A stretch of 63,943 nucleotides of DNA, filler included, from Folioceros fuciformis (Eukaryota), in NCBI GenBank assembly GCA_049999805.1. It is 5 parts of 5 records of this genome, joined end to end, with 100 filler letters (N's around TTAATTAATTAA, not from the genome) between each part and the next. Parts side by side here need not be neighbours in the genome. Positions count along the whole stretch, not along the records: positions 1 to 28,286 come from JBNGIO010006038.1; 4 more parts are not named here. One strand, 5' to 3'. The notes below the pieces were generated by a model. It saw nothing but the letters and a program-made list of their open reading frames with translations. It had not been told where the DNA came from and did not search any database. Positions 14,177-54,502 of this stretch are shown here, piece after piece (the first letter of the stretch is position 1; each line of letters starts with the position of its first letter). Position numbers and translations under genes: made by a program.

Positions 14177-14329
14177 TGTGGAAGCTGCAGTTTGCAGCTT
14201 TATGCTGGTGTATTCTGAACAACCCTAGATCCTTCAGCCTGTTAATCTGCACAGGGCAGGTTAGACAGGTGCATTAACACTTTACCCATAAAATCCTCAC
14301 AGTGAGGAGGGCTAACAACAGCTTCACAC

Positions 14330-17300
14330 ATGGGTGACGCTGCTAATCTAGCGGGTGAGGGGTTTAGGGAAAAGGACAGGTTTGGGGGGTCTGACTATGA
14401 CATTTGGGTCATTAGAATGAGAGGAGCATTACAAAACAAACTATTATGGAAATGGGCAACTGGGGACATTAAGTTTCCAGCTATAGTGCCTCCTGGAACC
14501 ATGCCTTCATCTGACGAGAAAAAGGCACAGGACGCTTGGGTCGTTAAAGATGAAGCAGCACAGTACCTTATCCGGAGTGGTCTGACGACTGATATGTTGA
14601 GACAGACTGCTGGTTGCAAAACCTCTGCCGAGATATGGATGCGGCTTCAAGACCTGTATGCTGGAACGGATGAAACATCTCAGCTGACTGCCCTCCGTAA
14701 TATTCAGACCTTGCGCATGAGAGAAGGAGATTCAATTGAGAAACATCTAACTGTTTTCAGATCTCTTGTCTCTAAACTGGAAAGTGCAGCACAAGAAAGT
14801 TTGAATGACTCAGCTTTGATTTTGCACTTTATGATGACTTTGCCAGAGTCATGGCAACATTTTGTTACCTCCTACAACACTTCACAGCTTCAGGGTCGCA
14901 AGATTGCAAAGGCTGCTGGAGTTGACCTCCCCAAGACCTCCTTCTCAGAGTTTTTAAGTGCACTTCTTCAAGAGGAAGTCACTAGGGGACAGTTTAAACG
15001 CCCTGGAAAACAGCAAGCCCTATACATTAACAACAACAAAGGCAAGAAGAAGCCAAATTTCAGAGGTAGGCAAAATACCTCTTTTGGTGCTGGCAGCTCA
15101 CAGGGAGCTACTGCACCAAAGAAGCCCAAAAAGGCAGGGAAGTGCCATTGGTGCCAGACTCCCGGCCATTGGGAGAATGAGTGTCGTAAGAAGATGGCTG
15201 GAGTTCCTCGCAAGGAGGTTAACTCAGCATCCCAGACACATATTGTTGTTACAAAGCACGGCTCGCCGTCAGCCCTTACTGTTCTTACCAGGAAGTTTAC
15301 TCCTCCCCTTATCAATCCCACTTGTCTATCTATGAATACACAAGGCAAACCAGTTAGTGAATGGTACCTTGATACTGGTGCAACTGCGCACATTAGCATA
15401 GATAGAAATGCCTTCATCACATACAAACCAGTAACAGATCGTTTTGTCTACCTGGGTGATGATAGCAAACTTGTGTGTCCAGGCATTGGGACAGTCAAGC
15501 TTCCTGTTCCCTCTGGAGGCACACTTGTGCTCACAGATGTGTATCACGTTCCTGAAATGACCACAAACCTCATTTCTGTTAGAAAACTCAATCAGGATAA
15601 CAATACACACATCTTGTTTACCCCAACAGAATGTAGGATCATTGATGCCTTTGACCCTCGTAAGGTTTTGGCATATGGTTCTTCAGATAGTGACCTGTTC
15701 AGGTTACATACTCATATTAGTGATGCTAAGGCTACACTTGCTTCACAATCTCCAGAGACAGTTGCTAAGCAAGAAGCCAAAGCTGTACTATGGCACAATA
15801 GGTTAGGTCACCCTCACAGCGCAAAGTTGCAGAAACTTGCTCTTAGTGATCTGTATGCTGATGGCCAGATTGGTAGGTTGCCACTCTTACCGTTATGTGA
15901 GGCATGTGTCCTCTCTAAACGCCATCAAGCAGCTTTCAAGAACAAGACTCCTCATAGGGCTTCGGATGTTCTTGAACTTGTTCACACTGACATATGTGGG
16001 CCTCTCTCTCAGCCCTCCATTGGAGGAGGCAAATACTTTCTCACCTTCACAGATGACAAAACAAGATTTGTTATGAAGCCGCTTACATTCTGAAAGCTAA
16101 GAATGAATGCTTTTCTCTGTTTAAGGATTACCTGAAACTTGTAGAACGTTGGACTGGAAAACAACTTAAAACCCTCCGTTCTGATAATGGTGGAGAGTTT
16201 ACCTCTGGGGAGTTTCAGGCATATTGTAGAGATGAAGGTATTGGAAGACAACTTACAGTTGTTTACACACCTCAGCAAAATGGAGTTGCTGAGCACCAAA
16301 ACTTCGTTCTTCAGGAGATGGTCTCCTCCCTCCTTCATCAAGCCTCCTTACCTCTATGTTACTGGGCTGAAGCCCTTATGACAGCTGTGTATCTTCGCAA
16401 CAGATTACCTACCACTGCTGTAATTGGCCAAACACCTTATGAAGCCTTCTATGGACGGAAGCCAGCCATTCTTCATCTTCGTACCTTTGGCTGCATTGCT
16501 TATGCCTTCATCCCTAATTAGAAAAGAACCAAGTTAGCTGCTAAAGCCCTCAAGCTTCTTATGCTTGGGTACACTGAGGGTATTAAGGCATACAAGCTAT
16601 ATGACGTACCTCGTAATCAAGTTATCTATGCTCGCAGCGTCACTTTTGATGAAGATCACTTTTGGCAGCCAGTGGGAGCAGTTCCTCCTGAGGGGGGGTC
16701 TCCTTCGAACATTGATTTTTCCTTGTTACCTGCTGTTACCACATTCCCTGATCATGATCCTGAGGAGATTGCTCCTGCAGGGGGGGAAGCACAGCATGAA
16801 CTTAACAATCCTGAACAAGCTCCTGAACAGCAAGACCTGCCACAATTACCTGACCAGGTCTTGGCTCCTCTAGATGTTCCTGCTGATTTGCAGCAACAAC
16901 CTCCTGCTGCAGATCCTCCAGCTCCTATTCCTGTGCCGCCAGATTTGTCTGATGCTTCAGATGACGATGCTGATCATGCTGATTCTGCTAGTGATGAAGA
17001 TGCCATCTTTGACCAGCCTTCGCCACCTATACAGCCTCCACAGCCTGCACTTCGTTATCCTGCCAGAGAGCGACGAGCACCAGATTTCTATCAGTCCGAG
17101 GATTTTCGACATCCTACGGCTAATGCAGCTATACCCTTGGACCCTATTGAACCTCAGTCCTATGAAGAAGCCATTAGCCGACCTGATGCTGCTGAATGGA
17201 GAAAAGCTATCCAATCTGAGTATGATTCCTTAATCAAAAATGGCACATGGGAGCTTGCAAAGTTACCTCCTGGACGAAAAGTTGTATCCTGCAAATGGGT

Positions 17301-18750
17301 CTTCAAGCTGAAAGTCAAAGCTGATGGCTCATTTGATCGATACAAGGCACGGCTTGTTGCTCGTGGGTTTTCACAAGTGCCAGGACTTGACTATTTCGAA
17401 ACATATGCTCTAGTCATGAAGCTTGCTACTTTCCGCATTATCTGTGCCCTAGCAGCATACCATGATCATGAGTTAGACATGTTTGACGTCAAAACAGCTT
17501 TTCTACATGGGAAACTAGACACTGAAATCTATATGCAACAACCTACAGGCTATGAAGTAAAGGGAAAAGAAGACCATGTCTTACTTCTCAAGAAAACCTT
17601 GTATGGGCTGAAGCAATCAGCTCTGGAATGGAACGCAGTCCTTGATGAAGAACTGCGTGCTTTAGGTTTCATTAAATGTATCTCTGACAACAGCCTGTAC
17701 GTGTACAGATCCGGAGGTGTGGTGTGCTACCTTGCAGTTTATGTTGACGACTTGATTCTCTCCTGTAACAGCCCTACATTCATCACAAAGATCAACAAGT
17801 TGTTAGCCTCCAAGTTTGAAATGACAAATCTTGGAGCACTTGAGAGCTGTTTAGGAGTGCTAATCAAACGTGACAGGAAACAGAAATCTATTTCACTTAC
17901 TCAGCCTAGGTATCTGCTTGAGTGTGCTGAACAGCTTGGCTTAAAGGATGCTAAGCCAGCTGCCACTCCGTTACCATCTGGACTCAAGTACAGCAAGTCT
18001 ATGTGTCCTGAAACACAGAAAGAAAAGGATCAGATGGCAGCAGTCCCTTACAGGAAGGGTGTTGGTAAGCTTATTTACGCAGCCAATACTACCAGACCTG
18101 ACATAACGTTCGCCACCAACGTGCTTTCACAGTACCTGGAAAACCCTGGACAGTTGCACAGGACAGGGGTTAAACGGGTTGTTAGGTATCTCAAAGGCAC
18201 AGCAGATGTGGGAATCAATTTTAGATATGTACCTGGGTCATCTCTACAACTTGATGTGTACACTGACTCTGATTACGCTGGAGATGTGGATACCAGGCGG
18301 TCAGTGTCTGGGTACGTGGTGATGATTGCAGGAGGTCCTATCTGCTGGTACAGTAAAAAGCAACCAACAGTTGCTACATCAAGCACGGAGGCAGAGTATC
18401 GAGTGCTTACCGCCGCAGCAAAGGAAATTGCTTGGTGCAGATCAGTCTTCAAGGAACTTGGTTTGCCACTCCCTACCTGCACAACCATAAAGACTGACAA
18501 CCAGGGCTCGATGAATTTAGCACAGAACCCTGTTTTCCACTCTCGCACGAAGCATGTGGAGGTGGAATATCATTTCATCAGAGACCTTGTGAAATCTGAC
18601 CAGATAGCGTTGGAGTACGTGCCAACTGCAGACAACCCCGCTGACATCTTTACTAAATCCCTCACTAGGGATATACATGTGAGGCACATGAGAAGTTTAG
18701 GTATGGGCAGCTCCGAGAGCAGTCCAGAAACCCTATCTACATCAGCTTAG
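14330..18750 (+). pseudogene. Copia A gag-pol polyprotein (one frameshift near 16070, one stop at 16519)
   Basis: CHWC..GHWENEC knuckle, WYLDTGAT protease, WHNRLGHP/CEAC/VHTDICGP integrase, YKARLVARGF and YVDDL RT, YTDSDYAG/ADIFTK RNase H. Confidence 0.95.
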
Positions 18751-19681: not shown

Positions 19682-19853
19682 TAATGGAAGATAGTGTATT
19701 GAATCATTGCTTAGGGTTTCGTTTNNNNNNNNNNNNNNNNNNNNNNNNNNNNNNNNNNNNNNNNNNNNNNNNNNNNNNNNNNNNNNNNNNNNNNNNNNNN
19801 NNNNNNNNNNNNNNNNNNNNNNNNTGATTTACACCTTCTTATTAATTTTGTCA
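19682..19853 (+). repeat. 3' LTR of copia A (internal N100 gap)
   Basis: Both sequenced ends match the 5' LTR; followed by the TSD. Confidence 0.92.
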
Positions 19854-22323
19854 GTATCAACCATGGCTTCATGTCTTTGTCTATGCAATCTTATTGGGGA
19901 AATTTGCATGATGCAAAGTTGGAGGCATTAAGGATGAACAAGTGACTCCTAGCCTACGTCCATGGAGACGAGATCACAGCATTTCCAAAAATTGCAGCAA
20001 TGAGATTTTGAAGGATCTCATCATACAATCTTTCCGTAAGTGGAAAGTCCCAACCAGCACCACAAAGACCTTAAAAGTGAAGACCTTTTACAATATAGGT
20101 GAGAGCACTTTCTGTACACTTATGATTGACTCACTTATTGGGCAAAAGTTGAAACAATGTGATGCAAGTGACACAAGCTCGGACGGATTGGTATAGCAAT
20201 GGCTTCCATTCACTTACAAAAGACCTATCACAAGGGATGTCATAGATGAAATACTACCATTAGGGATTATATTTGAAGAAGGCCACAAAGTGGAACCCTG
20301 GGCTCTTCTAGCTGGTGTTATCATCAAAGATACACATTACAATGCTACTATCCTTGGTTTGAAACAACCAATGTTCTAGAGGAGCCTAGAGAGGAATCGT
20401 GCATTGCATCACGAGCGACTTGTCAAGTTGCATTTTGACTCTTGCATCGAACTATTTGACCGTTGTCAACAACATCATGTCGTTTTTTATTGTTTGATTC
20501 TTTTTCCTATTTGTGGTTCTTTTGTTTGAAGCAACTACAAGAGACCTGGTTATTTCACACGTCCAATGAGCAGTTTAATTACTTTGTTGTACCACATAGA
20601 CCTGGTGTTGCAACTAGCTATGCCTTGGATGCACTATGCTCGAAAACCCTAGGAGAGGTTGCTGGCGTAATAGATTGTGTGCTAACCATGGTGTACAAAA
20701 AGCAAAAGTAATGAAAGTAAAGTGTTTCAATGAAGTGTGCACAAAGTTGCAAGTTTTCTAAAAGTGGAAGTGTGTCATTTGTATTATAAAGGTATAATAA
20801 TACAATATCAATTTTTTTTGGATTTTTTCTCATGACTTGGGGAAATAGAGGAAGCACATTCATGAAGGCTTTGTCTTCACATTTGCATTTTCCATATCTT
20901 TCTTTGGCCAGCCTTTGGCCCTAAATGAAGAAAGCTCTTTTTTGTGTTTAAAAAGAGGACTATATGTGATTTTTGGCTATTAAGCTCCCCTTCTAATTGA
21001 GGGATCAACAATTAACTTTCGGTTTTCTAATGTCTTATCTTTCATGTCATCCAATCTACCTCCTTTGTACTAAAACCTAAAAAATCAAACCAAAAATACA
21101 AACTACAAAGTTATATATATGTAATTACTATATAATTGTAAGGACTACGAGTCTAGAGTGGATGGTAAAGAAATGTGACTTCGTAAATGGGTTTTCTAAA
21201 ATTAACTAAAAGTAAAAGAAATTTATGCTGCATAGTAGAAGACAAGGAAGAGGATATTCTGAGCAACACTTATGACGTTTGACAGGATGCTATGTTTGGC
21301 AAGATGGGACTCAGTAACGGAATAGCTCGGGATACATATCCCTCGTTTACCAAGGTGAGTTAAGGATTTGCGACCAGCAAGGAAGGGTGACCATGTATCC
21401 TGAGCTTTTTTTTCCAGTTCAAGAAATAGGCGTCTGTCTAATTTTGACAATCGCGGAGCTAATCCCACTTAACCTGACGTGCGCTAGAGGGCTCTTTTCC
21501 CGCCTCTCTTAGAGACCTTCCTTCTTTGCAAAGTCCGGAAGACACCAGTCTGGTTCATGAATCCCCTGGTTGTGTCGGTCCACAATTACCATGACACGCG
21601 GTACCCGATTGACAGCGTCAAGAATTCCAAATACATGTGACGCTTCCGCAAATAACCGTGTTGAGAACAGTAGGCAACTTGTGAGCACAATGGGCAACTT
21701 GTCTCCCCGGGAAGCACCTCCCTGGGTTGCGCGTCCTGGCTCATCTGCTGCCAAACACCGTGGCGTGTCAGGACAGAGAAGTGGCAGAGATTGCGCAAGC
21801 GTCACGGGACATGGATTCCTCTGAGCGTCCACCACCTTGCGCGTAGTCTCGTCTTCCCTAGGTAGGACCTGAGAAAGGAGTTCAGTCGTCCCACGCTGCG
21901 GTCCTTGTCACTCATGCTGGATGCACTCGCATCTCTGCCACGGCTACTCTCCGCCAGGAGTGTCCTGCAAGCTACTCCGCAACGGCTGTTTGGAGCTAAA
22001 TTCTCACAGATCTGGCAAGCCGCAAGCTGGATTGCGCACGGACAGTGGACCCTGCTCTATGGTTCTCCATGCTCGTCAGGTGGTTGATCTTTTGTGCTTC
22101 AGCGAGGCCGGTGGGATGTGAATTAACCTGAACTTGCTATGATCGGTAGCGTCTGTTTCGTCGCGCTGTCTCGGACAGGGAGCGGACGTGGACCGGCGGT
22201 TTCACCTATAAGTAGGCTGAATGCGTAGCTTGCACTCGGAATTGTGTGCCTCCGTTTGAGATCTAGTGACTGTTGAAGGATTGTGGTTTTTCCGGCTCGT
22301 CACAGGAGCTTCCAGTGTGTAAA

Positions 22324-23217
22324 ATGGCTCTGGAGACGCCACAGCGGAAATGTCCAAGCGTGAGTGAATGCTCGCAGAGTAGACAACGTTTGGTAGTGGT
22401 TGAGGATACTGGTGTAGATCTGGGTTTGAGTAAGTGCAAAACAAGCGTGGATTTGCCTTCCATCAGTGATTTGGATTCTGAGGAGTACAATTGCCAAGGG
22501 AATACGGCAAACGTTGGAGCGCGCCCTGGTGTTTCCCTGCTGAAAAGGGGAGAATCGGAGAGGTCAATTCGTGTATCCCCGCTTGCTCAATTGTTCCGTG
22601 ACAGCAACCAGGTAAGTTAGATTCCGTCTTCCTTTCCGCATTGGTTCTTCATTCAATTTGTTCCCTTGATTGGCCTCCATGATCTTGTGCTGCATCTTTT
22701 TTTTTTTGTGCTTGAATTGAAGGTATATGGTGCTCTCGTGCAGAGGAAAGCAGGATCACGGATACTCGTAAACGTCACCATTAGGAGGAGCCCTGGTCCC
22801 TTGAGAGTCATCGTGGACGCAGATGACAATGTGAAACAAGTAATACAACAGGCTTTGACAGTGTACGCAAGAGAAGGTCGGTTACCAGTCCTCCAATCTA
22901 ACAGTGATGCTTTCGAGCTCTACTGCGGGCAGGACATGTGTCAAGGTGCTTCTCGATCCCTTACTGGTGCACCATGCTCAGGATGCCTCTAAATTGATGC
23001 AACAGTTTAGTCTTGTTCTTGTGCTAACTTTTCTTTTTCAACTTCCTCTGCAGCCGTTCCTACGGAGCAGCGAATAGGAAGTCTAGGAGTGCGACATTTT
23101 TTGATGTGTCCAAGGGCAATTGCAACCTCCAGTGCTTGCAACCCCAGCAGCAATGAGCAACGTAGCGATTGGAACACGTGGTGGAAGAAAATGGTTGCCT
23201 GGCAAATTGTGTGGTAA
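22324..23217 (+). CDS. At4g22758/DUF7054-like plant protein; exons 22324-22611, 22723-22945, 23054-23217 (224 aa)
   Basis: RILVNVTIRRSPGPLRVIV..ALTVYAREGRLPVL..FELYC, then IGSLGVRHFLMC in exon 3. GT-AG introns in phases 0 and 1 give an open frame to TAA at 23215. Start codon uncertain. Confidence 0.85.
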
Positions 23218-25081
23218 CAAAAATCTCGCCTGATACTGAGGCTTGAACCATGCCCACCTCAGATTCAGTACTTTGATGTGACTCATGTACGAGGTTCGGA
23301 ATCCAAAGTAGGTGTCAACAGCAGCATAGTACCGTCCAGGTGCATGCCGTGTGGATGTCAGAGTTGTGATCTGTACACTATTCTTGCAGGTACGTTAGGA
23401 CGAATACATGTGTTTACGTTGCTCTAAAATTTATATTCATTGAGGATCCAAGGGCTGCATCCTTCCACACCTTCTGGTTGGAGATCAAAGCAGGTCGAAC
23501 CGGATCGCATGCCAAACCCCGTCCGTACCCCATCATGAAATAGAAGAGAGTAACTCTGCCCAGGCCACCCGCATTGGTGTATCTGGTAACTGAAAGAAAG
23601 TTTAATATTTTCACATTCGACAAGATGCTACCTATGCCACAGGTAATAAAGTAGTTGTGTGGCTCTATTACAGCCCCAAAACTATGTACGTTCCATGTGG
23701 CTGAAACAAAACTAAAACTACTTCCATGTGGGCTGAAACAAAATCAAAAGTACTAAAAATAGGGAAGTCCCCTTTAAGAGGGAGAAAAATTCCCCATTTA
23801 GTTTTGGCCCTCCCCAACCCTCCTTTCCCCCCAACCCTCCTTTCCGTTTTTCGCGCCAACATTTGGCGCCCTTACCGGCTATGGGCAATGCCTTTCACCA
23901 GTACATCCTCTCACTTTGTAGAGTAGCCACATTGTTTGTTCTCTATTGCAAAGATTGTCATGGTGTCATGTAGCATACCAGAGGTACAGAATCAACAATG
24001 GCATTCAATCAGCCCATTCAATCATACCTTGAAAGAATCTCTAGTCCCCAATCTTGTGAGAACCATAGCTACTTGTTTTACAACATGCAACTTACGGTTG
24101 GCAAGGTAATGAGACCTGGAGGAGGATGTCTGGTCAAGTCAAGAGCAACAACACTACAGATGTAATTGAATGTGGTTGGGGAGACTTTGATCATCTCTCT
24201 CCAATGGTCAGGATCTCCAGTTGGAACAATTATCATAAACAATTGTCATGAACTTTGCCCACCAATGAAGTGATCGTGGTTTGATGTAGTTTCTGAGATG
24301 CTCACGATGGCAAAGAACTAGTTCTGAGGTGCACCACCGGGAGCAGCGTTTCATCCCGTGAGTGCCCTTAAAATCCGGCACTTTTTGGCCATATACATGG
24401 TGTTATGGAACATGGAAAGTGCCCTAAAACTTATTTATCCAAATGGATTTGGGTGCACATGGAAAGTGACCCTTAGTGTAACATTTTGATAATGTGAACA
24501 AAAGTCGGATGGTTACACATTTCAAATTAGAAGAAGAATCCCTAAATACACTACAAATCACATAGATATTAGAAAACCATGGGAGTTGATGCTTTAGAAA
24601 AACCATGTCCTACACAACAATAAGATGTTTCTATTAAAAGATGACTTACTAAAATAAATATGTATTCACTTGTTGGACATTCTACATTTGCATAACAACT
24701 CAATTGCTATTTAAACATTTATATGCTCAAATTGGAGAACTTGTGCCCACCTTTTGGCCAATCTACAAACAAAAGTGATGCAACCACTTTATAAAATTGT
24801 TTGCACTCATGAAATAACTAGGTTGTCATAAATACAAGCGGGGTGACATTTTGACCCTACTGAGCTTGGCTCCGGTCTCCACAATTGTTAAATAAAATTG
24901 GGGTCACTAAAGGTTGGTAATAGGCCCAAAACTCAATCTTAGTTCTTTTGTTTTCCTGGGTAATCAGGGTTCAAAAATGATAGGGCCATCTAATCATATA
25001 TCCATTGGTTTATAATTGTTATAAGAGAAGCTTATTGTTATAGGGGAATTTTATATTGTTCAAGTTCACTTACTTAACTAG

Positions 25082-25745
25082 CAAAAGGGATTTAAGTTTT
25101 GATATATATGAGAACCTTTTATGAGTTATAGAGATATTGCGATGGAAGGCTTTCCGAAAGTGAAGATGTATGATACATATGTTACAAAGAGTACTTGCAA
25201 GAAGCATATGATTCTTATAGCCAATGTTTCACATGAACAACAACAAGAAAGGTTGCATACAAGTCCATGGTTTGGGATATTCATAGACAAGGGAATGGAC
25301 AAGACAATAGTGTAATTCACAATTATTTATTTTATTATTTACATAATACAACAATATAAACAAAGTTTTTAAAGCTTGCCAATATTGCAAGTGCACCTAT
25401 AGAAGGAATCTTCAATACTTTGGTTGAGCAATAGCAACTCTTTGATTTGAATATCAAAAAAATGAGTGGATGTGCGAGTGATGGAACATTAATCATAGTT
25501 TGCAAGGTCAAAAGCCAAAGAGATTACAATGTTGTGAAGTTTCTACGTGATATGAATTTGTATTTTGCTCAAAATGATTACGTTGCTCACAATACGGTGC
25601 TTGCAACTTCAAAGACAACGTCCAAGGTTCTCGACTTTGAGATGGCAAATAAGATAAGATTGTGAGGCAATTGTACGTTGCTCTTCATCATTTAAGTAAG
25701 AAGACTATGACTTTGCATGAATTGCAAGTGCATTTAGAAATGCAT
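25082..25745 (+). pseudogene. hAT (ZNF862/DUF4371-like) transposase remnant
   Basis: SPWFGIFIDKGMDKT (cf. SxxFxxxxDESTD), GCASDGT (cf. xSDGA), DYVAHNTVLA (cf. HCxAHxLxL). Many stops and frameshifts. Confidence 0.7.
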
Positions 25746-26563
25746 GAGTGCATTTGAGTGCTATCACTACTTAATTGCTTTCCTTGCTTATTTGCACATT
25801 TGTATTATCACAAATCCAAATTTGTTGGGACTCAGTAGACCCTTATTGGCCATAACTTCTATGCTTAGCTTAGAAAACTTTCTAGTTACCCAAGGTCTCA
25901 CTATCTCAATCCATGTTGGTTTAATTGCTACATTGCTATGGATCACCAAGTATTGCTATGGGGCAATCGGACTAGCCTTATGGACCCGTATTTTTGAGTC
26001 TTTGTGTATTTTAGATTAGATTTGTATGTGAATGCAAGACATGAGAAGTTAAATAAGGCTTACTAGGTAAAGTAAAATTAAAATCATATTATCATGTAAG
26101 GGAATAATTGTACCAAGGATAAAGTGAAGTATACATAGGATATGACGAACTTAGGTTTGGAGAACCGGAAGTGCATTAGACTTACCATGGGCTAACTAGG
26201 GGTATGATGGGAAACAACATATCTAATGGTGCTTCACGATCCATGGAATTGCTAAGAGCATAAAACATGGTATGCACCAAATGGGTGGATTCTTGAAAGC
26301 CTGTTTGGTGCCAATGACAAAAAGTGAAAGACTAACTCCATATTTGTTTAAGATCATTAGGGTTCACGGAATGGTGCTGCACATATGTGTGCCATAATAT
26401 TGTATTTGAAAAAACCTAAGTACACGCAAGTAAGCTTGCATTACTTAAGCCATGGAGAAACTCTAACAGCTAAAGTTGTAAGTCCAAAAAGTAGTGCACC
26501 AGTATACCAGCGCACCTAAGCTTAAACATTCTGGCTTTCCCAAAAGCAAAAGCTCTTGAAATC

Positions 26564-27768
26564 TCAAGAAAATTCTTCATGGTTAGCTTCTGAGCCCTGT
26601 ACTACGTCTAGGGACCTAAGTCGTTGCTCCTCTGTGCCAGCCAAATCATCAACCTCCACCTCGAGGACAGAAAATTCCGGTGCCTCCACAGTTTGGGGTG
26701 GAAGTGTGCCATTTTCATCCCATATTGTTATAGTAAGAGGATGTTCCTCAACCCGTTTGACATTCTGGGAACCTTTCTCACCCTTTTTCCCAAGTAGGTT
26801 GAAGACTTGCATCTTCCTATCAATATTCCCATCGGTGCAAACTTCTTTGCTCAAATTTTCGAGGGGCCTCTAATGAATGATGAAATAGAAATCTGTTCTT
26901 CAACATCCAACAAGTTTTCTATTCCTAGAATCCTTTGCGTTATGTATAAGGTGCGCTTGAGGTCGATTTCAATGGCCGTTGCATGCTGCCAATGCTGGAC
27001 AGCTACTTGTGAAAAACTTCTAGAACTTACGAATGCATCTACCACCTAGTAGCCTTCACATGAGACCATCTGCAATAGCATACCTAGCAATCCAAGGTGT
27101 TTTTGATATGGTGAGAAGACCATAGAGTCTGCAATTGGAAGTAGATGCGTTTTTACCATGGCTCCGTGATGAATAACTTGAGGAAGAAGGTTTATGCCCA
27201 GGGAAAATAGTGGTGCCCTTGGTTTAGTTGTCTCCACCTTCACAGCATTGCCATTGATTAGATACTCCACTATCTCCACTATTGCAGAGTTTGGTGGAAT
27301 ATTTGTCTTCTTTCGGATGAGGGTTTGTATGGTACCCTTTTTACACCATGGACGTAAAGCCTCTCTTGCATGCATCACTCTATCCACACAGTGCATGAAG
27401 TTAATCCCGTAGACATTACAACTAGTTCACTCATTGAATCCACTCAACAACTCTTCTAGCTCAGTTTCAGTCACCTGCTGGTCATTCTGATGCCTTTGTA
27501 GCCCAAGTGGTAAATCTGCGAAAAACAAAGAATACAAGCGTTTTATCATAAAAGCCTTCATCTCAAGTATATTTCTATGAAATACCTCGTATTTGACTTT
27601 TTCTTTTGAGTTTAGAATCCTATATTCAGACAATCCTGCATCCATATATGCATTTGCCAATTCCTGCTTCCCCTCCTCAATCTGCTTCCAATTCCGGGCA
27701 AAGTAAATATAGTCCTAGTCTTGAAATTACTTTGGAAGAGATAGGTTGCTGATGTACTTTGGCTTCTG
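26564..27768 (-). pseudogene. Beta-class N4-cytosine/N6-adenine DNA methyltransferase homolog, decayed
   Basis: One frame 27768-26851 with point stops: YEVFHRNILE..YSLFFADLPLG (motif IV), TLIRKK..VEYLI, FSPYQKHLGLL (motif X), EGY*VVDAFVSSRS (motif I), ATAIEID. Probable frameshifted acidic tail to 26564. Confidence 0.75.
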
Positions 27769-27782
27769 CAGAACCCAAAGTA

Positions 27783-27874
27783 CATCACCTAAACATTACA
27801 ACATCAGATGAGGTAGTGACATTGGCATCACCTAAACATTACAACATCAAATGAGGTATTGACATTGGCATCAC
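27783..27874. repeat. 43-bp tandem duplication
   Basis: CATCACCTAAACATTACAACATCARATGAGGTAKTGACATTGG twice. Confidence 0.9.
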
Positions 27875-28286
27875 TGTCCTTGTTGTGCTAGTATGCTAGT
27901 GCATCAAGCATCTTCCCTGTGCTGGTGCGCGGGTATACTGGTGCATCCTCGTCTGGTCCTTGCTGGATGTGCTAGTATATTAACACACGTATGAAAACTC
28001 TATGCAAGTGCAGCCACAAACTCGGTGGATCTACTAAGTCTCTAGGAGCCAAATCTCTGCGCGGGTGCATTGGTGTATGGGCGCATCTGCGAAATCTTTG
28101 CACACCCCTGAAATCTCTAAGTCCTGTTTCAAAAAAAATATATCCTAGCATGTAATTTTGCATCGCAAGACTCTTCAAAGCACCATGATAAAACGATAAA
28201 ATATTTTTATGAAACAAAGTTTATGAATACAATATATTACTTAAAAATATATTATGTATAAATTTAATCCATATACTTGATCATTA

Positions 28287-28386
28287 NNNNNNNNNNNNNN
28301 NNNNNNNNNNNNNNNNNNNNNNNNNNNNNNTTAATTAATTAANNNNNNNNNNNNNNNNNNNNNNNNNNNNNNNNNNNNNNNNNNNN
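28287..28386. other. Artificial scaffold linker N44-TTAATTAATTAA-N44
   Basis: Six-frame stop linker; identical structure at four places in the window. Confidence 0.97.
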
Positions 28387-29330: not shown

Positions 29331-29737
29331 CTCTCCACAGGCACACCCTACCCCCTACTTCACATTTTTCACGGCCACAGGTTAGCTAGACGATTGTTGA
29401 CTTTCTAAACTACACCACCACTATCTCTTGATCATCCTCTTTAATCTAGCCTTATCTAACATAGTTTCCTAATGACCTCTCCAAGGAATTCTATCAAAAC
29501 TCCAAAAAAAACAAATACCACCCATTTTCTAAGAGGCCTATCTACCATGTGGTCTCCACAGGACCAAAAATAAATTCATCTCCATTGTATTAATAGATGG
29601 GATATTTCATAGGTACCAAGATGTTTTTTTTTTCGTGAAAAAAATTCGGATTATAATTGGCAGATGCCTCCCACTACAAGGGGAGAATCCTGCTAATGTA
29701 TGTACAAAAATCAAGCACCAGAAGAGAGCACTGGGCA

Positions 29738-30480
29738 CTGGCCAGGGGCAGGCGATTGGATCGGCGGTTGGTGGGCTGGCGGATCTAGGCAAGGCGCCAA
29801 GATCTAGGCCAGTGGCGTGGCTGGTTGGTCGGCGGCGGCGCATCCAGGCCGACAGATAGGTGAGCCAGGCCGGGGGCCGAGGACTTAATGGGCGGGCTGG
29901 TTGGTAGCAGCTAGGCACAGGGGCTAGATGGGCAAGTTTGCTGGCGGGCTGGCATCTAGGCGCTGGCTGCAGGCAGCAGATCCAGGTAGGCTCATTGGCA
30001 TCTGAGCGCTGGCCGGGGGCAGGCGATTGGATCCGCGGTTGGTGGGCTAGCGGATTTAGGCAAGGTGCCAGGATCCAGTCCAGTGGCCTGGCTGGTTGGT
30101 CGGCGGCGGCGCATCTAGGCCAACAGATAGGTGAGCCAGGCCGGGGGCCGAGGACCAGACGGGCGGGCTGGTTGGTAGCAGCCAGGCACACGGGCTGGCT
30201 GGGCAAGTTTGCTGGCGAGCTAGCATCCAGGCGGTGGCTGCAGGAGACGGATCCATACAGGTCAGGAGGAGGCAAATCCAGCACTCGCCCAATCTTGGCA
30301 GGCTAGCTAGATCGTGGTTAGTCAGCGGGCTAGGTAACCAAGCAGCGGCAGCAGGCCGACGATAGGCAGGATGGCCAAATCGGCGGCTAGTAGGAGGGTG
30401 CTCCGGGCTCAACAGGCGGCGGGCAGATCAGTGGCTGGAGCCAAGATCCACGGCAATGGTCTGGCTGGCGAGGGCAGGGT
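29738..30480. repeat. GC-rich repeat in opposite orientation, with a 271-bp tandem duplication (29738 / 30009)
   Basis: CTGGCCRGGGGCAGGCGATTGGATC... is repeated at a 271-bp offset. Confidence 0.75.
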
Positions 30481-31686: not shown

Positions 31687-34600
31687 GCTGCAAACTCCTC
31701 AAGGTCCAGTTGGAATCTGCAATATTTATGCGCCTAACGCTGCCATTGACAAGAGTATCCTGTGGTGTAGGCTGGGGGATCAACTTGATGAGCAGATCCC
31801 GTGGATGCTGGCTGGCGACTTCAACTTTGTTGAACACCGTGAGGACATTCAAGGGGATACCCTAGTAGATTTACGGGCGGTGCCTATGTCTTGGCAGGAG
31901 CTGAGAGACACGGTCTTGGCTGTGCAGGATCCTTGGGTGGCCCTCCCGGCTCATCGCCAACCACAGTCCTTGATGTTCAGCTGGTCCAATCAACAACAAA
32001 AGAATTTGGGAGCGCGCAGGTTGGACAAGTTTTATTTACCTTCAGGGTGGTTGGCCTTCGTACAGTCGTACAGTATTCTCGCTGGTACGATCTTATCCGA
32101 CCACCACCCCATTAGCTTGCTCTTGAGGCTTGCTCCAGAGGGTGAGCGCCCAAGGAGGCATATGCAAAATTTTCGGATGAACACATCCTTACTGAAGGAA
32201 AAAGGTGTCTTTGAAAATATCAAAAACATTTGGCAGGGAGTTAAACAGGGGGAAGAAAATGCGGCGGTCAAATTGATGTGTGCTAACAATGAGGTGACTA
32301 GGTATTTAAGGAGGCTAGGGTTTCAACATGCACGAGAACAACGCTAGCAAGAATGTTTTTTGAGGGAGGAACTATGCTGGTTACAGAGGAGCTGTGAGGG
32401 TGGGGATCTCACAATTGCGGAAGAGGCCAGGAAAACGGAGGTGCAATGAGCTTTGGCCAAGTTGGAAGAAGACAGGGCCAGAGGTTGGTTCAAGCGTGCC
32501 AAAGTTAAGTGGGTGAGGGAGGGGGACGGCCTCTCTAAACTCTTCTTCGATAAGGTGGCCTCTAACCGGCATCGGACGCGAATTCTTGCCCTCCCAGACG
32601 CGTGAGGCATGGTGCAAGAATCACTGGAAGGTTTAAAAACTCTTATTACCCTCTTCTTTGTTGGCATATTTTCCAGCGTTGGGAAGGTGGCAGGGTGGGA
32701 ACGGCTTTGGTCTTCTTCATATGGCGCGCTTTCGGCTTAAGTGTCTGATGACCAGCGCAGAGCTATGGATAAGCCGATAACTGCTGACGAGGTGTTCCAG
32801 GCCCTGAAGGGGATGTCGAGGGATAAATCCCCGGGACATGATGGTATTCCTCCCGAGTTCCTGCTATGGGGGTGGGAATTTATGGAGCCGTTATTCATGG
32901 AAGCGGTTAGTATGTTTTGGGAAGAAGGTAGTATGGGGAGCTGGTTCAATATGGGGGTTATCTCCTTGCTCCCTAAGCAAGACGCCAGCTTATCAATCTC
33001 CAATTGGCGCCCGATTACCTTGCTCACTACCACGTACAAGGTGATTGCTAAGGTACTGGCTAATGGAATTACACTCTTTCTTGATGATTGGATTGAGAAA
33101 GAGCAGCGAGGGTTCATTCAAAATAGGTGCATCCTAGACAACCTACTACTCCTGAGGGAAGCTAATTACAACACTCAGGTACAGAAAAAAGCCATCGTTT
33201 TCATTTCCCTTGACTTTTACAAGGCTTGTGATTCTGTTGAGTGGCATTTCCTGTGGCGGTGTCTACGTAGCTTCGAATTTGGGAACAATTTTTGCAGATG
33301 GATAGCCATTCTGTGTGAAGATGCAGGAGCCAAGGTGGTTGTTAATGGGCCTTTTACGGAGCACTTTGGCATCTCTCGGTCGGTACGTCACGGTTGCCCC
33401 CTTGCTCCGTTCTTATTTATTATCGTCATTGACTTCTTTCTCAGAGCAGTCAAGCGAGACCCGGCAGTGGTGGGTATTCGGAACCCAGATGGAACGCAGC
33501 TAAGGGTCTCTGCATTTGCAGATGATACTCTCCTCTTCTCTTTGGCTGGGGAGGCCTCATTGAAAGAGTTGCTACAACATGTCAAGGTCTTTGGTGAACT
33601 ATCAGGCTGCAAGGTGAATTGGAGCAAGACGCGCATGATGTGTCTTCACATGGATGGGGAGCTTCCTCAGTGTATTAATCACATAAGGCGAGTGACTCTA
33701 GGTTCTACCCACAAGTATTTGGGGCTTCCTTTCCAAGAGGGGGATGAGAATGAGGAGATTGGGAAGTACGTCTGCCTCAGGTTCATTCGCAAAGCGGGTA
33801 GTCTACAGTCACTGGAGCTTAACCTGGTGGGTAGGCTGGTGGTGATTAATCATATCCTTACTGCCTCTTTATGGTATTATCTGTTTTTATGGGCCCCTTC
33901 CAAGATAGAAGCGAAGCGCTTACACTAGGTGCTGACCTCTTTCCTGTGGAAGCGTTCAGGGGACAGTATGGCTGGGTGCTCTAAAGTAGCTTGGCAGCAT
34001 ATTATTCAGGCATGTGGTTTGGGGGGGCTCGAGTTGGTAGACCCAGTTGCCAAGATGAAAGTGTTGCATGCTTAGTGGGTTGTCAGGGCAGGTGATCCGG
34101 CGTACTATCCTTGGAAGAGTCTGCTAACACAGCATCTGGACTACACCCAAGCTGTCCCCAGGGAAAGGAGATCTATTGACAACATTCTGGCTGACAAATC
34201 AATACTCGATATTGTAGAATGCTCCCCACTCTTCAAGTCCATCTGGAGCAGCTACTTGGAGGTTAAACAATACATTATCCTGGGGGACTTTTCTTGTGCG
34301 GATGATGTTCTTGGTATTCCTTTGCAGGGATTCTTGAGGTTATGGGTGCAGGAGTTCAGGTCAAGGGTTTATCAATCACAAATTTTCGGGTGGGCTTGTC
34401 GGAGAGGCGTTATCCAACTTGGTCATTTGTGGAATAGGTCAGAGGCTCATTGGAAGGAGATAGAGGAGGTCAAAGGGGAGTTTGGCTTAGGGGCCCGACA
34501 CGTCAGACTCATTTTCTCATGGATGCACGAGGGGCTAGAGGAAAAGGTGCAACAGTTCTTAAGGCAACAACCTACCATAGGAAGTGAAGGGTGGTATGCA

Positions 34601-35896: not shown

Positions 35897-38800
35897 TTAC
35901 TTGCTGTGGGACACGTTTGTTATGTGGAGGGGTCCTAGGACACCCAAGGACTCCTTAAACTGATAGTGCTTCATCCTAGGTAAGGCTTTCGTAAGCAAAT
36001 CCGCAGCATTAGCATCAGTCAGCACATACTCAAGCTTGACTTGTTTTGTCTCAACAGCATGTCGAATGAAGTGATGATGGACTTCAACATGCTTAGTTCT
36101 GGCATGAAATACTGGATTTTGTGCCAAAGCTAACGCTGATTGATTGTCGCAATATATAGTTGTTGGTTCTCGCTGTGGTTGTCCAAGATCTGATAACAAT
36201 CTTCTCAGCCAAATTGCCTCTTTAGACGCCTGTGTCAAGGCAGAGTATTCTGCCTCTGTTGACGAGAGTGACACAGTCGTTTGTTTCTTTGAGGACCATG
36301 TAACTGCTCCACCAGCTAGAAGAAAAGCATATGCTGAAACGGACTTCCTCGTATCAGGATCTGCTGCCCAGTCAGCATCGCAGTATCCTATCAGCATAAG
36401 CTCCTCTCCTTCAAAGGCTTGTTTGGAATAATGTATACCATGATCACTCGTGCCCTTCAAATATCGAAGAATCCGCTTAACAGCTGACCAGTGTACCTTT
36501 CCTGGATTCTTGAGGTGCTGAGAGACCATGCTTACTGGGAGAGCTACATCAGGCCTACTATTGTTTGAGCAGTATATGAGTGAACCTACTGCTTGGGCAT
36601 AGGGAACTGCCTCCATCTCGTGCTTATCAGCATCAGTCGCTGGAGACTGGGAGCTGGACAACTTGCAACCAGTTTCAAGAGGTGTAATTGCTACCTTAGC
36701 TTCCTCGAGCTTATACTTGAATAGCATATCCAGAATATACTTCTGCTGATGTATTACCAATGTGCCACTTGCAGAGTCACGAGACAGCTGAGTGCCGAGG
36801 CAGTAGGACAACTCCCCGACATCTACCATTTCAAAGCGACCAGACAGCAGACCTTTAACTCTGGTAATCCCCTCAAGATCAGTGCCTAGGAGTATGCAAT
36901 CATCTACGTACAAAGCTAGTATAACAAAACCTGTTTTGTCTTGCAGGAGATAAACATTCGAATCTGCTGAGCTTTTAAGAAAACCAAGTCCTAGCAGGAA
37001 CTCATCTATGACTTCATACCAAGCACGGGGACTCTGCTTCAAGCCGTAGATAGTTTTGAGTAACTGACAGACCCAGTCCTCTTTCCCTTCTACCTCGTAC
37101 CCCTCAGGCTGTTGCATAAAGATATCTTCCTCTAATTTCCCATGGAGAAAGGCGGTCTTAACATCCATCTGGTGGATGAAAAGGCCAAAAAACGCAGACA
37201 TGGAGAAGAGGACACGAAGAGACTGAGACTTAACTACAGGGCTAAAAGTATCATGGTAGTCTAAGCCAGGGACTTGAGAGAACCCACGAGCTACTAACCT
37301 GGCCTTGTATCTGGAGATAGAGCCATCCGCCTTATATTTCAACTTGAACACCCACTTCGAGGTGACAATTTTCCTCCCCTGAGGCGGAGGAACTATCTTC
37401 CAGGTTTGATTGTGGATCAATGAGTCATATTCAGACTGGATTGCTGCTTTCCAAAGCTTGGCCTCTGGCCCACTAACAGCCTCTTGATAACTTTGTGGTT
37501 CACAACCAGGTTCGAAAGCAAGGTTAATGAAATCAACCACCACTCCATCGGCAGCTGAACCAGGAGGTCGAGGGACTTTCCGAAAGTCTTCACTGCTGTA
37601 AGGTGCCTCCTTCCAATTCTCACGTGTTCTGTGCACTCGAGTAGACCGCCGAAGAGGGGCAGGCTGGGGAATGGGCATCACATATTCGACTGGATCATCT
37701 TCGAACCGCTCAGGATGTTGAATAACAGGCTGTGGAATAACTGGGGCTGGAGGTTCATCATCGTCTGACTGTACAAGTATAGGAAGCAAGACATCATCGA
37801 GATCAGCAGGTGGATCATCTAGATGTGTATCATCAGACTGGTCAGGGGGATCACCAAGGGCTTGTGGGGGAGGCACCACAGGTAAAGGGTCAGGAGTTGT
37901 AAAGGAAGGATCTGAGTCAGGAAACGTGGCAGATTCAAAAGCACTAACATCATCCTCTGGCTCGACAGGTTGGTTATCAACTTCTACAACATCAGGATCT
38001 GTGAAATCATCAAAGGAATGAGCTGGCGGTTTAAGAACAGAACGCTCATCGAAAACAACTGTCCTGGCATGTGAAACCTTTCGAGTAACAGGGTCGAACA
38101 ACTTATAACCATGTATACCCGCTGTATAGCCAATGAAGATGTGATGTTTCGACTTATAGTCAAACTTGTGGCGAAGCTGATCAGGCACATGAGCATAGGC
38201 GGTACTCCCAAACACTCGGAGATGTGCCAGATCTGGTTTACACCCAGTCCACACTTCAAAGGGTGTACAGCTGCGAAGAGATGAAACAGCAGAACGATTT
38301 TGTAGGTATGTCGCAACTTGCACTGCTTCCGCCCAGAATTTAACTGACAGTCTTCCTTGATACAGAAGAGAGCGAGCAGCATCCTGGATGGTCCTGTGAC
38401 GACGCTCCGCACGTCCATTCATATCAGAGTGATACGGGATGGTGAGTTGTCTAGTTATCCCCCTCTCCTGACAATATTCCTGGAAGGCTAGGGATAAGTA
38501 CTCCTTGCCATTGTCACTTCTGATACACTTCAGCTGATGTCCAGTCTGCCTTTCTGCGTATGCAAGGTACCGCTTGAAGCTGGAGAATACTTCACTCTTG
38601 TGGCGTAAAAGCTCTGTCACTGTGAAGTGTGACTTATCGTCCTCGAACACAACAAAATATTTAGCGCCTCCCCAGGAGGGTACCGACATTGGGCCACATA
38701 TGTCGGTATGTACAAGGTCGAGAATATCTGTTGCCTTTCGTGGTTTACCACTACCAAAATGTGACTTGAATTGCTTTCCATATACGCAGGCAACACACAA

Positions 38801-40369
38801 CTCAAGATCAGAGAGTTCATGTTCACTGAATCCAGTTACCAGTTTTTCCCGAAGCATTCTTCTCATAGCTTATATGTTGGGGTGACCCAAACGGTAGTGC
38901 CACTTAAAGGCACTACTGGAATGTCCGTCCTTGATATTCTGAACAGCAACATTAGCTGTAGAAGGAGGAACATCGGAGAGAAAGTCTAACAAATATAGAT
39001 CAAACAGAGGAGTTCCCCTGGCAATAACCACTGTAGGATCTGATAGACGAGATATATGGCACTCAACACCCTCAAAGGTGATTCTGTACTGGTTCATCTT
39101 TCCTAGGGCCCTTGTACTAACCAAATTCTTTGCAAGAGCTGGAACGTGAAGAGCATTCACGAGGAGTAAATAGCTGCCATCCTGTAAAGTAATCTGAATT
39201 GTTCCAGCTCCCTTGATTGGTATTGTTGAGTTATCTCCTAACACAACTGCTGTTTGGTGACATGTAGGGGATTTCTCGTATGTGATGAAAGACTTCCTCT
39301 TTGAACACATATGGTTTGAGGCTCCACTATCTAGGAACCACTTCTGACAGCCTTCTTTTGAAGACGTGAGGCATGCCACCAACAATCCTGGTGTTGAAGC
39401 TCTAGCGGTATGAGCTTCTGATGATCTCCCCTTTACACTGTCATCTCTAGCTTTCTTTCTGCAATCCTTCACCCAATGTCCTGGCTTACCACAGTAGTTG
39501 CAGTTTCCAGGCTTTGAGGTGAAGTTAGAGGATGGCTGACTAGGAGATGAGGAGGGAGTCATGGGGTGACCACGACCCCTGCCTAAACCTCCTCTTCCTC
39601 GCCCCCTGCCACGTCCACGCCCTCTACCCCTTCCAAAGAACAGAGCTGTATCACTCTGTTTATGAGAGGTATGAGAAGAAGAGGGGTTACTCTTCATTTG
39701 TTTCCTGTTTGCTTCGAACTGCAACAGTGCTCCAACCACCTTTTGTACTGTAAGATTTGATGTAGCTGGAGTTGTGGCCGTGGCAGGTGTGACCGTCGTC
39801 GATGTTTGAAGGCTTGAGCTAAAGAATTCATAGCTTGGTGGAAGTGATAATAACAGCTGAACTGCTGCTCTTCATTCCGAGATGATTACTCCGCAAGATG
39901 CTAGTCTGGCTCTCGCAGCCCTAAACTTTGAGACATGGCTCTCCACTGAGTCACTCTCTTTCATGCGAAGTATCTGATACTGCAGTGTAGCTGCAGCCTC
40001 TGCTACCATATCCTTTGTATCATAGGTGTCTGATAGCAAGGACCAAACCTCGTTTGAAGTCTGCGTCATTTTTATATGTGGTATCATCTCTTGAGACACA
40101 GAAGCCACAAGAATATTTCTTGCCTTCCTGTCTTTGTGTTTCCACTCTAACTCATCCTTCTGTGTGTATCTAGGTATCGTGCCACCAGGTGTAGGGGGAC
40201 CAGAGGGCTGTCCATCAACTTTTCTAGGGGCAGTCCCATCAACGACATCCATCAAGAGCTTCTCATCTAAGATACACCGTATCCTGAAACTCCAGGCATC
40301 AAAATTATGTGAGGTCAGCCTATCTTTCTCTTGCAATCTATCAGAACCAGAATCATCCTTTGACCCCAT
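35897..40369 (-). pseudogene. Copia B gag-pol; single frame with two premature stops (39872, 38870)
   Basis: CNYCGKPGHWVKDC, WFLDSGAS, WHYRLGHP, HTDICGP, YVDDC, YCDADWA. Confidence 0.95.
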
Positions 40370-40395
40370 GATGCCTGTAAGTGAGAGTTCCTAAT

Positions 40396-40917
40396 TTAAA
40401 GTGGTGTAGCCGTTAGGCGAGCAAGCTGCTCCCTAAGGCTATCTATTTCCTTTTCTTGCTGTACCATTGTTCTTAGATCTGAGTTCCTCAGATTCTCAAG
40501 TCTCTCCTGTCTTGCCTGCAGATTATCAGCCTTAGTTGTGTACTCCAAAACAGTACTTCTTATGTTTAAGATAGAATTCAAAATAGCTTCGTGCTCTGTA
40601 ACTCTCTCTGGGTAGGGTTTTGAGGTGTATCTCGGAGCACAAGTCGCCTCAGAACTGAACTGTTGATTTCTACTGCTAGTCCTGTTAGTCTTGCTTCTCT
40701 GTGGAGGCACAAAGTCCGAATCTGAATCTTGGCTGTCAATTTCTGCAGGGGATTGTGAGCAAAGGAAAACGTTGAGGAAGCGCTCCCGCTCGATTTTTTC
40801 TGCAGGAGAGATTCCCCTCTTGAAATACTTCTTATCAAAAGCAGCCGATACAGACTGCCTGAATTTTCCTTTGTCAAAAGCTGGCACAGGCTGCCTCTGA
40901 GAATTCTTGCGAGGCAT
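40396..40917 (-). CDS. Extra ORF upstream of gag in copia B (173 aa, C-terminal coiled coil)
   Basis: Intact ORF between PBS and gag, ending 26 bp before the gag ATG. Confidence 0.62.
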   Translation of the reverse strand: MPRKNSQRQPVPAFDKGKFRQSVSAAFDKKYFKRGISPAEKIERERFLNVFLCSQSPAEIDSQDSDSDFVPPQRSKTNRTSSRNQQFSSEATCAPRYTSKPYPERVTEHEAILNSILNIRSTVLEYTTKADNLQARQERLENLRNSDLRTMVQQEKEIDSLREQLARLTATPL

Positions 40918-41032
40918 CCTGCCTGTCTAAAACTAGGGTTCCAGCAATCCAAAGTATGGCATTGCATCCATCTCTCAATTAACAGCAAATAATGATGGCA
41001 CAGCAACGGAATTCAGGGTACAGGCCCGCACA

Positions 41033-41046
41033 TGGCTCTGATACCA
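41033..41046 (-). promoter_or_regulatory. PBS, tRNA-iMet
   Basis: Reverse complement TGGTATCAGAGCCA abutting the LTR. Confidence 0.95.
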
Positions 41047-41260
41047 TGATGCATTTGTGAATCGTTCCCATGCAGATCACACACGCTCGAGACACACTAG
41101 CAACGAATATCTTATATGTCAGGCGAACTCAGCACAAAAGTGTCCGAGACCCATAAAAACGGTTACAACTAATAACTACCTCTAGGGTTACCCGTTGGGT
41201 GCCCTAATGTAAGTTCTACGTATATAACAATGTACTAATAATTACCTATTATTTCTAGCA
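41047..41260 (-). repeat. 5' LTR of copia B
   Basis: Near-identical to 34733-34946. Confidence 0.9.
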
Positions 41261-41305
41261 CCCCCTCTCATTGTATATACAGTCTAAATAGCAAACTAAT
41301 TAAGC

Positions 41306-41405
41306 NNNNNNNNNNNNNNNNNNNNNNNNNNNNNNNNNNNNNNNNNNNNTTAATTAATTAANNNNNNNNNNNNNNNNNNNNNNNNNNNNNNNNNNNNNNN
41401 NNNNN
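41306..41405. other. Artificial scaffold linker
   Basis: N44-TTAATTAATTAA-N44. Confidence 0.97.
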
Positions 41406-54402: not shown

Positions 54403-54502
54403 NNNNNNNNNNNNNNNNNNNNNNNNNNNNNNNNNNNNNNNNNNNNTTAATTAATTAANNNNNNNNNNNNNNNNNNNNNNNNNNNNNNNNNNNNNNNNNN
54501 NN
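54403..54502. other. Artificial scaffold linker
   Basis: N44-TTAATTAATTAA-N44. Confidence 0.97.

Follow-up and report, generated by a model that had tools for sequence, protein, structure and literature searches.

We wanted to establish what a nearly open reading frame on the minus strand of the Folioceros fuciformis genome represents. The analysed DNA (the window, 63,943 nucleotides from assembly GCA_049999805.1, composed of five joined parts) contains a methyltransferase-like locus in its first scaffold (JBNGIO010006038.1), within contig 19825-28286. A sequence-only reading had taken this locus for a decayed copy of a beta-class DNA amino-methyltransferase gene of prokaryotic type. Our results point to a similar answer. 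Positions 26851-27783 of the minus strand, probably together with a tail that reaches 26564, are very likely a copy, now dead, of a nuclear, intron-containing gene of the plant; the gene encoded a divergent protein resembling beta-class amino-methyltransferases. The intact protein would be circularly permuted and of the PF01555 type.

The reading frame and its relatives

The minus-strand open reading frames (ORFs) 27427-27714, 27046-27426 and 26851-27045, taken from stop to stop, were contiguous and belonged to one frame. The sequence-only reading had joined three ORFs across single stops; its coordinates were those of the ATG-started versions of the same frames, and the TGA and TAG between them were found (Table 1). 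It had followed the frame up to about 27768, and we traced homology to 27783, through two further stops, TAA and TAG. The range that it had assigned to the gene, 26564-27768, was correct in part: the methyltransferase frame continues down to 26851, while 26564-26850 is in a different frame. There were 4 internal stops in the 310 codons of 27783-26851, compared with 13-21 in the remaining five frames of this span. The 5000 mononucleotide shuffles averaged 20.6 stops and had at least 7, so none came down to 4. When reads of the same sample were assembled independently, 26802-28000 came out with 0 differences, therefore the stops are not errors of the present assembly. Rescue of the stops by U-to-C RNA editing was considered and rejected, because the TAG nearest to the 3' end of the frame needs A>G to restore a conserved Trp and because the scaffold is nuclear-like.

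We searched 1.84 billion proteins exhaustively with phmmer, using the translated frame, and obtained 9 matches at E ≤ 1e-3, of which 7 formed one family. The best match was P0001 (E 6.9e-12, query residues 6-276). The two others, P0003 and P0009, were set aside as spurious; they are long repeat proteins aligned over 33-49 residues. Comparison of P0001 with the locus by tblastn gave E 2.5e-16 and 26% identity over 314 columns. We then compared the relatives with PF01555 (N6_N4_Mtase), the gathering threshold of which is 26.7 bits. It was passed by 5 of the 7 family members detected by phmmer (P0001, 30.0; P0002, 50.1; P0004, 47.3; P0005, 37.2; P0008, 47.6 bits), and the remaining two were N-terminal fragments. 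P0010 (47.6 bits), P0014 (56.4 bits) and the three metagenome ORFs that were scanned (L010, L011 and L012, 33.6-36.8 bits) passed it as well.

Profile comparisons were performed with hhalign. The window translation was aligned to the family at 99.5% (E 1.5e-22, 288 columns), and the family to bacterial and phage PF01555 proteins at 99.6% (E 1.8e-24, 213 columns, from motif IV to motif I). The window translation alone reached 90.4% against the bacterial and phage profile (E 1.4e-6, 107 columns). Further, the family profile had 13 matches among sequences of the PDB, and 12 of these were beta-class DNA amino-methyltransferases (CcrM, 4.3e-10; M.MboIIA, 1.8e-9); N4CMT was matched more weakly than CcrM (5e-6). 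Neighbours of P0001 in the ESM Atlas were all PF01555 clusters, mostly from phages. When the window translation was compared by tblastn with 50,697 phage records (E ≤ 10), it matched 18 of them, in every case within an annotated DNA methylase gene. By organism name these records represent about five distinct phage groups, and all 4 that were checked are PF01555 proteins. The best pairwise alignment had 33% identity over 83 residues and spanned QKP and motif I.

Motifs, fold and decay of the window copy

In the alignment with bacterial enzymes the catalytic motif IV precedes motif I, which binds S-adenosylmethionine (AdoMet). The window copy has the same permuted order: DLPL, found exactly where the sequence-only reading had placed it, stands before the remnant of motif I. 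The consensus of motif IV is (D/N/S)-P-P-(Y/F/W), and neither the window copy nor its relatives conform to it. DLPL had been read against a DPPY/DLPY consensus, and this reading had to be corrected. It is not a decayed DPPY; the family has a conserved motif of its own, DLPRG, and its DLPRGL was aligned by hhalign on bacterial DPPYG.

An intact member would comprise a family-specific N-terminal helix, a catalytic lobe, an AdoMet-binding lobe (SPYQKP followed by D-x-C/F-S/A-G-S/T-G) and an acidic tail. Its catalytic lobe would carry the non-canonical but conserved motif IV, DLPRG in the subgroup of the window copy and D[AIV]PYG in two others. We built AlphaFold2 models of P0002 (predicted local distance difference test, 76.9; predicted template modelling score, 0.78) and of the window translation (77.5 and 0.77, respectively). 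Foldseek comparison of both models with the PDB gave the top matches CcrM, M.MboIIA, M1.HpyAVI, M.BceJIV, N4CMT, M.RsrI, M.PvuII and TTHA0409 (CcrM, 9e-12 for the P0002 model and 5.9e-10 for the window model). Chains of METTL3/14 ranked below the beta-class matches. The models thereby support a beta-class methyltransferase fold for the family and for the window copy. The class proposed by the sequence-only reading is upheld by the PF01555 scores, the hhalign result and the Foldseek ranking. It had named three findings as damaging to it: lack of a significant amino-methyltransferase or Rossmann-fold match, homologues confined to bacterial contaminant contigs, and best matches to RNA or protein methyltransferases. 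None of the three was observed.

Decay of the copy was assessed on conserved columns. The window copy retained 29 of 50 family-conserved columns. The 21 altered ones could be explained by single C>T or G>A changes (9), a T>C or A>G change (1), transversions (7) or more than one step (4). Both glycines of motif I were lost (FVSSRS, compared with [CF]-[SA]-G-[ST]-G in relatives), each by G>A. Reversions suggested earlier fell on conserved residues: TAG>TGG on a Trp kept in 7 of 7 relatives, AGT>GGT on a Gly kept in 6 of 7, and AGA>GGA on a Gly kept in 7 of 7. In a tree of 47 rows the end branch of the window copy was 1.77 (median 0.36). The frame was interrupted by the 4 internal stops and, relative to paralogs, by a stop and a 1-base deletion at 26848-26853. 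The window copy is a pseudogene, without a function of its own. The four nonsense codons and the loss of the motif I Gly, the QKP Pro and the W-x-K Trp would prevent it from encoding the protein, and the stop and deletion at the tail junction would disable it further. The tail ORF 26567-26869 had no similarity to the tails of P0001 or other relatives and no Pfam family.

Besides the window copy, the same plant genome harbours diverged copies elsewhere, some of them better kept. We mapped contigs of the source sample to the region, requiring 80% likeness; run X1 yielded 26, of which 4 were at ≥99% identity, 3 at 90-95% and 19 below 90%. The runs that contain the stretch were all DNA runs of the probable source sample, and run X4, presumed to be RNA, yielded no contig on the region. 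The differences between paralogs and window, among those listed, shifted toward the family consensus: CGA to TGG (Trp) at 27315-27313, Gly to Arg at 27408, Asn to Ile at 27401, Gln to Glu at 26895 and TGA to TGG at 26853-26851. Some of the paralogous contigs had one extra base behind 26848, which joins the methyltransferase frame to the acidic tail 26848-26564. The view that the locus is a decayed copy of a wider family, put forward from sequence, agrees with the stops, the altered columns and these paralogs.

Run X3 of the same sample resembled a bisulfite-type library, with G>A making up 85 of the 101 listed kinds of difference. One X3 contig covered 27333-27628 with 27 differences. All 19 that were listed fell on minus-strand CHH cytosines, of which the stretch has 28, and none of those listed fell on its 12 CG/CHG sites (hypergeometric P = 5e-5). 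This single contig suggests that CG and CHG cytosines of the minus strand at the locus are likely methylated and CHH cytosines unmethylated. The excess of C>T/G>A changes fits the suggested CG/CHG methylation. Many of the decay changes are such transitions, and cytosine methylation may have driven the decay.

Structure of the gene was consistent with an intron. The acceptor-like CTGCAG, which had been noticed at about 27766, was found (Table 1), and we infer a splice site at 27765. It fits an exon boundary in P0011/P0012, alternative gene models that diverge at the aligned acceptor position, just before RVRSVGNL. It also fits a gap of 320-440 bases that separates an upstream ORF (ORF-B) from the methyltransferase ORF in the metagenome contigs L010 and L012. 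The N-terminal part of P0012 matched ORF-B weakly (56%, E 1.1e-4).

Several observations count against this identification. The window translation had no Pfam family even at E ≤ 10 and no sequence match in the PDB, and a word-indexed protein search with it (near lengths) was empty. Because of this, placement in PF01555 rests mostly on the relatives. The nearest relative was only 26% identical to the window copy, and tblastn on the locus gave no match for 4 of 10 family proteins (P0005, P0007, P0010 and P0012). Matches to the family supplied the bacterial and phage rows in the profiles, in the tree and in the fold alignments, and these family-selected bacterial members also entered the alignments on which the structure models relied. 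Organism names are attached to only two relatives, and the paralogs in the same genome were seen only as partial contigs, none of them complete and intact. Motif IV departs from the consensus even in intact relatives, so that any enzymatic activity would be putative. In addition, 8.3% of 1080 frames of the same size in the retrotransposon-rich window also had 4 stops or fewer. Openness of the frame is therefore weak evidence on its own, and the case is carried by homology.

The last figure, the missing Pfam and PDB sequence matches, and the composition of the window as a chain of short unplaced scaffolds would also suit a chance frame and motif order in non-coding or repeat DNA, or a contig of bacterial contamination. 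We find this hardly credible. Chance does not agree with the full-length homology found among 1.84 billion proteins (E 6.9e-12) or with the 99.5% hhalign result. Contamination does not agree with the plant exon on the same contig (DUF7054) and the copia elements in the scaffold, which together with the likely CG/CHG methylation mark the contig as plant DNA. The intron-like structure, the paralogs in the same genome and the methylation argue against both. A dead plant gene copy therefore remains our reading of the locus, and its features are collected in Table 1.

Table 1. Coordinates of the features of the pseudogene in the window
Feature	Position	Strand	Remark
Pseudogene body	26887..27783	-	homologous to residues 8-318 of P0001; single frame, no frameshift
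Layout of the body	26887..27783	-	family-specific N-terminal helix, then beta-class methyltransferase domain
In-frame stop TAA	27727..27729	-	sequence and alignment to relatives
In-frame stop TAG	27715..27717	-	sequence and alignment to relatives
Motif IV position, reads DLPL	27505..27516	-	relatives DLPRG; one paralogous contig DLPF (DLPFG)
In-frame stop TGA	27427..27429	-	relatives have I, L or V at this column
CGA (Arg) at W-x-K motif	27313..27315	-	Trp in 8/8 relatives; TGG in paralogous contigs of the same genome
SPYQKH	27097..27114	-	corresponds to SPYQKP (relatives) and HPTQKP (bacterial enzymes); Pro lost
In-frame stop TAG	27046..27048	-	Trp in 7/7 relatives; one G>A from TGG
Motif I remnant VVDAFVSSRS (AdoMet binding)	27016..27045	-	relatives D-x-[CF]-[SA]-G-[ST]-G-[ST]
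Terminal stop TGA of methyltransferase frame	26851..26853	-	TGG in three paralogous contigs
Acidic tail, open, 95 codons	26564..26848	-	next frame; in a paralog-like state it would extend the methyltransferase frame
CTGCAG, 3' splice-acceptor-like	27766..27771	-	27765 would be the first base of the methyltransferase exon
Two tandem 43-base copies (95% identical)	27783..27868		within the presumed intron, immediately before the acceptor-like site

The family, its origin and comparable systems

Only P0005 and P0010 carried an organism name, that of the fern Adiantum nelumboides; the two hypothetical proteins share at least 90% identity and are encoded on different contigs. Further members were assembly or metagenome proteins. 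Motif IV read DLPRG in P0001 (by eye), P0002, P0004, P0006, P0007 and P0012, DAPYG in P0005 and P0010, and DIPYG or DVPYG in P0008 and L010-L014. The tree consisted of family rows and bacterial and phage PF01555 rows. The 11 family rows, the window copy included, formed one clade (SH-aLRT 100, the Shimodaira-Hasegawa-like approximate likelihood ratio test) on a branch of length 1.97. Three subgroups were observed: Adiantum (DAPYG), P0008 with the metagenome copies (DIPYG, DVPYG), and the DLPRG group, in which the window copy was placed (SH-aLRT 84). DLPRG was conserved among relatives just 35-56% identical to one another, which points to an altered active site held under constraint and not to decay. 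As judged from the sequences, the family is a clade of its own, well apart from the bacterial and phage enzymes. A methyltransferase of a prokaryote or phage, passed on by horizontal transfer, is its probable ancestor. Among IMG/VR viral contigs we found just 5 distant relatives (23-33% identity) and no close viral donor.

The family shares with the bacterial and phage beta-class enzymes (CcrM, M.MboIIA, M.RsrI, M.PvuII) the order of the lobes, catalytic before AdoMet, as well as the QKP motif, motif I of the FxGSG type and the fold. It differs from them in having DLPRG or D[AIV]PYG in place of (D/S/N)PP(Y/F/W). The specific N-terminal helix, the acidic tail, intron-bearing genes in eukaryotic DNA and the separate clade are found in the family only. 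Its nearest matches outside the family were 32 PF01555 proteins, of which 20 also have a ParB domain.

Few prokaryote-to-eukaryote acquisitions of amino-methyltransferases are cited in the portions of the literature at hand: N4CMT, DN4MT1, a 6mA (N6-methyladenine) enzyme of early-branching fungi and the retrotransposon DAM family. In Marchantia, DN4MT1a and DN4MT1b are described as prokaryote-derived methyltransferases which produce N4-methylcytosine (4mC) in sperm and have the motif TSPPY (bioRxiv 10.1101/2021.02.12.428880). Judged from that published description, the comparison concerns another beta-class amino-methyltransferase of prokaryotic origin in a land plant. N4CMT of bdelloid rotifers is a PF01555 enzyme acquired by a eukaryote, is intron-bearing and is said to be without eukaryotic homologues (PMC8885841); the paper on its structure gives the motif as SPPY, and a 2025 paper treats the acquisitions in Marchantia and Adineta as independent. 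Structures of N4CMT (8s9o, 8s9m and 8s9n) were among our top fold matches. However, (T)SPPY was absent from the window and from all relatives, and so was the C-terminal chromodomain described for N4CMT.

Retrotransposons carrying DAM (of the DIRS and long terminal repeat, LTR, types) encode prokaryote-like adenine methyltransferases; DAM-LTRs are reported absent from Streptophyta in a screen that used the DAM domain, and PF01555 is unmentioned in the part of the text available (bioRxiv 10.64898/2026.05.21.726589). As far as that description goes, these elements are alike in that genes of prokaryotic amino-methyltransferases multiply inside eukaryotic genomes. They differ in that no reverse transcriptase or tyrosine recombinase adjoins the window gene (23500-28286). 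The DAM domain presumably belongs to a Pfam family other than PF01555. Our own literature search turned up no description of this clade or of any PF01555 family from a plant or fern; its scope did not extend to supplements or to the Marchantia work as published in Cell in 2025, where homologues from other plants may be listed.

Mobility of the family was considered on the basis of copy number. It was multi-copy wherever copies could be counted, therefore it may be mobile-element cargo. That it is cargo and not a host gene, with the window copy as a dead fragmentary insertion, is a possibility that we take seriously without favouring it. Diverged copies are present in this genome, and in Adiantum the two copies lie on different contigs, the gene model of one joining it to sequence that resembles a retrotransposon integrase. 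Likely CG/CHG methylation at the locus would agree with this possibility as well. One metagenome contained six paralogous contigs (L010-L015), in which 5 of 5 full-length methyltransferase ORFs were intact (376-457 residues, 60-85% protein identity). All six share the order ORF-A, ORF-B, methyltransferase, and in 4 of them the methyltransferase is followed by a convergent gene with a DUF7869 domain; this arrangement may be an undescribed multi-gene mobile element of a eukaryote. Clusters of DUF7869 had a patchy distribution over molluscs, streptophytes and cnidarians, which we regard as a lead only. On the other hand, six-frame Pfam analysis of 23500-28286 detected no transposase, reverse transcriptase or recombinase domain, nor any other family, and no long terminal or inverted repeats were found around the locus. 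Relatives of ORF-A, ORF-B and the DUF7869 gene were not found in the window, where the upstream sequence stops at the scaffold join at 28286. DUF7869 is without known function; its ORF had no sequence match in the PDB, and the literature search found no mention of it. Moreover, multi-copy gene families occur without mobility too.

A ParB-like nature of ORF-B was considered and found to be unsupported. Of the 3 ORF-B pieces that were scanned, 1 had an HTH_ParB score of 19.9 bits, short of the 22.6 required. Comparison with 20 ParB-methyltransferase fusions by hhalign gave 0.4%, and the PDB match to Spo0J had E 0.56. The spacers of the metagenome contigs were filled with short repeats translating as ...ETSLAPGIP.... 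In the gene model of P0010 (720 amino acids) the methyltransferase part is joined to a long acidic linker and to sequence resembling a retrotransposon integrase. This model is probably a chimeric prediction, and the Adiantum copy lies beside retrotransposon debris.

We consider it unlikely that the family is instead a working host system which writes 6mA or 4mC, by analogy with DN4MT1 in Marchantia sperm, and that the window holds one dead paralog of it. Such a role would be compatible with intact relatives retaining the AdoMet-binding and QKP motifs at 25-50% mutual identity, with the D[AIV]PYG subgroups retaining the Asp, Pro and aromatic Tyr of motif IV, and with the predicted fold, which is that of DNA amino-methyltransferases. 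The family is carried by a fern and by this non-flowering plant, and eukaryotic acquisitions of prokaryotic methyltransferases are on record. Against it, in the DLPRG subgroup, to which the window copy belongs, the catalytic motif has neither its first Pro nor its aromatic residue, and the TSPPY of DN4MT1 is absent. Changes of this kind can abolish catalysis; in the METTL3/14 pair, the subunit with the degenerate motif is inactive.

The locus, which we read as a dead copy of a plant gene, points to a further clade that is intron-bearing, multi-copy, present in at least a fern and this plant, and altered yet conserved in its catalytic motif. With considerable doubt, we suggest from the sequences that non-seed plants may carry a multi-copy, possibly transposon-borne beta-class clade with the motif DLPRG or D-x-P-Y-G, whose intact members, including those of this genome, would be active. 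These would methylate their own or host DNA, giving 6mA or 4mC, or would act there on a new substrate. Active members, if there are any, would give plants a novel source of 6mA or 4mC, and this could be an example of a selfish element carrying its own DNA-modifying enzyme. If they are inactive, a methyltransferase fold would have been retained for another purpose.

Surroundings of the locus

The window is divided by linkers, N44-TTAATTAATTAA-N44, at 28287-28386, 41306-41405, 54403-54502 and 59213-59312. These split it into short separate scaffolds, therefore features on the two sides of a linker are not genomic neighbours. Runs of 100 N at 9453, 19725, 47235, 53861, 54815 and 56962 are ordinary gaps within scaffolds.

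The exon of DUF7054, which we take to be plant-specific, was located at 22621-22992 (+) (E 3.4e-20), on the same contig as the pseudogene, about 4 kb from it and on the opposite strand. Copia elements share the scaffold with the pseudogene. In the whole window, several copia-type gag/pol stretches, some of them broken, and one RVT_1 reverse transcriptase ORF were found at 14306-18750 (+), 32741-33928 (+), 35897-44338 (-), 57226-58521 (+) and 61892-63280 (+). The next scaffold has a pair of direct repeats of 254 bases (89% identical) at 29731-30255.

We also observed an ORF with a KH domain at 52649-54454 (-) and an intact PPR-E gene of 948 codons at 49064-51910 (+). The PPR-E protein, which marks the host as a land plant, probably a non-flowering one that lacks close relatives in the database, had its best named matches by identity in the lycophyte Diphasiastrum (46-47%), followed by ferns, conifers, Ginkgo and liverworts (32-43%).

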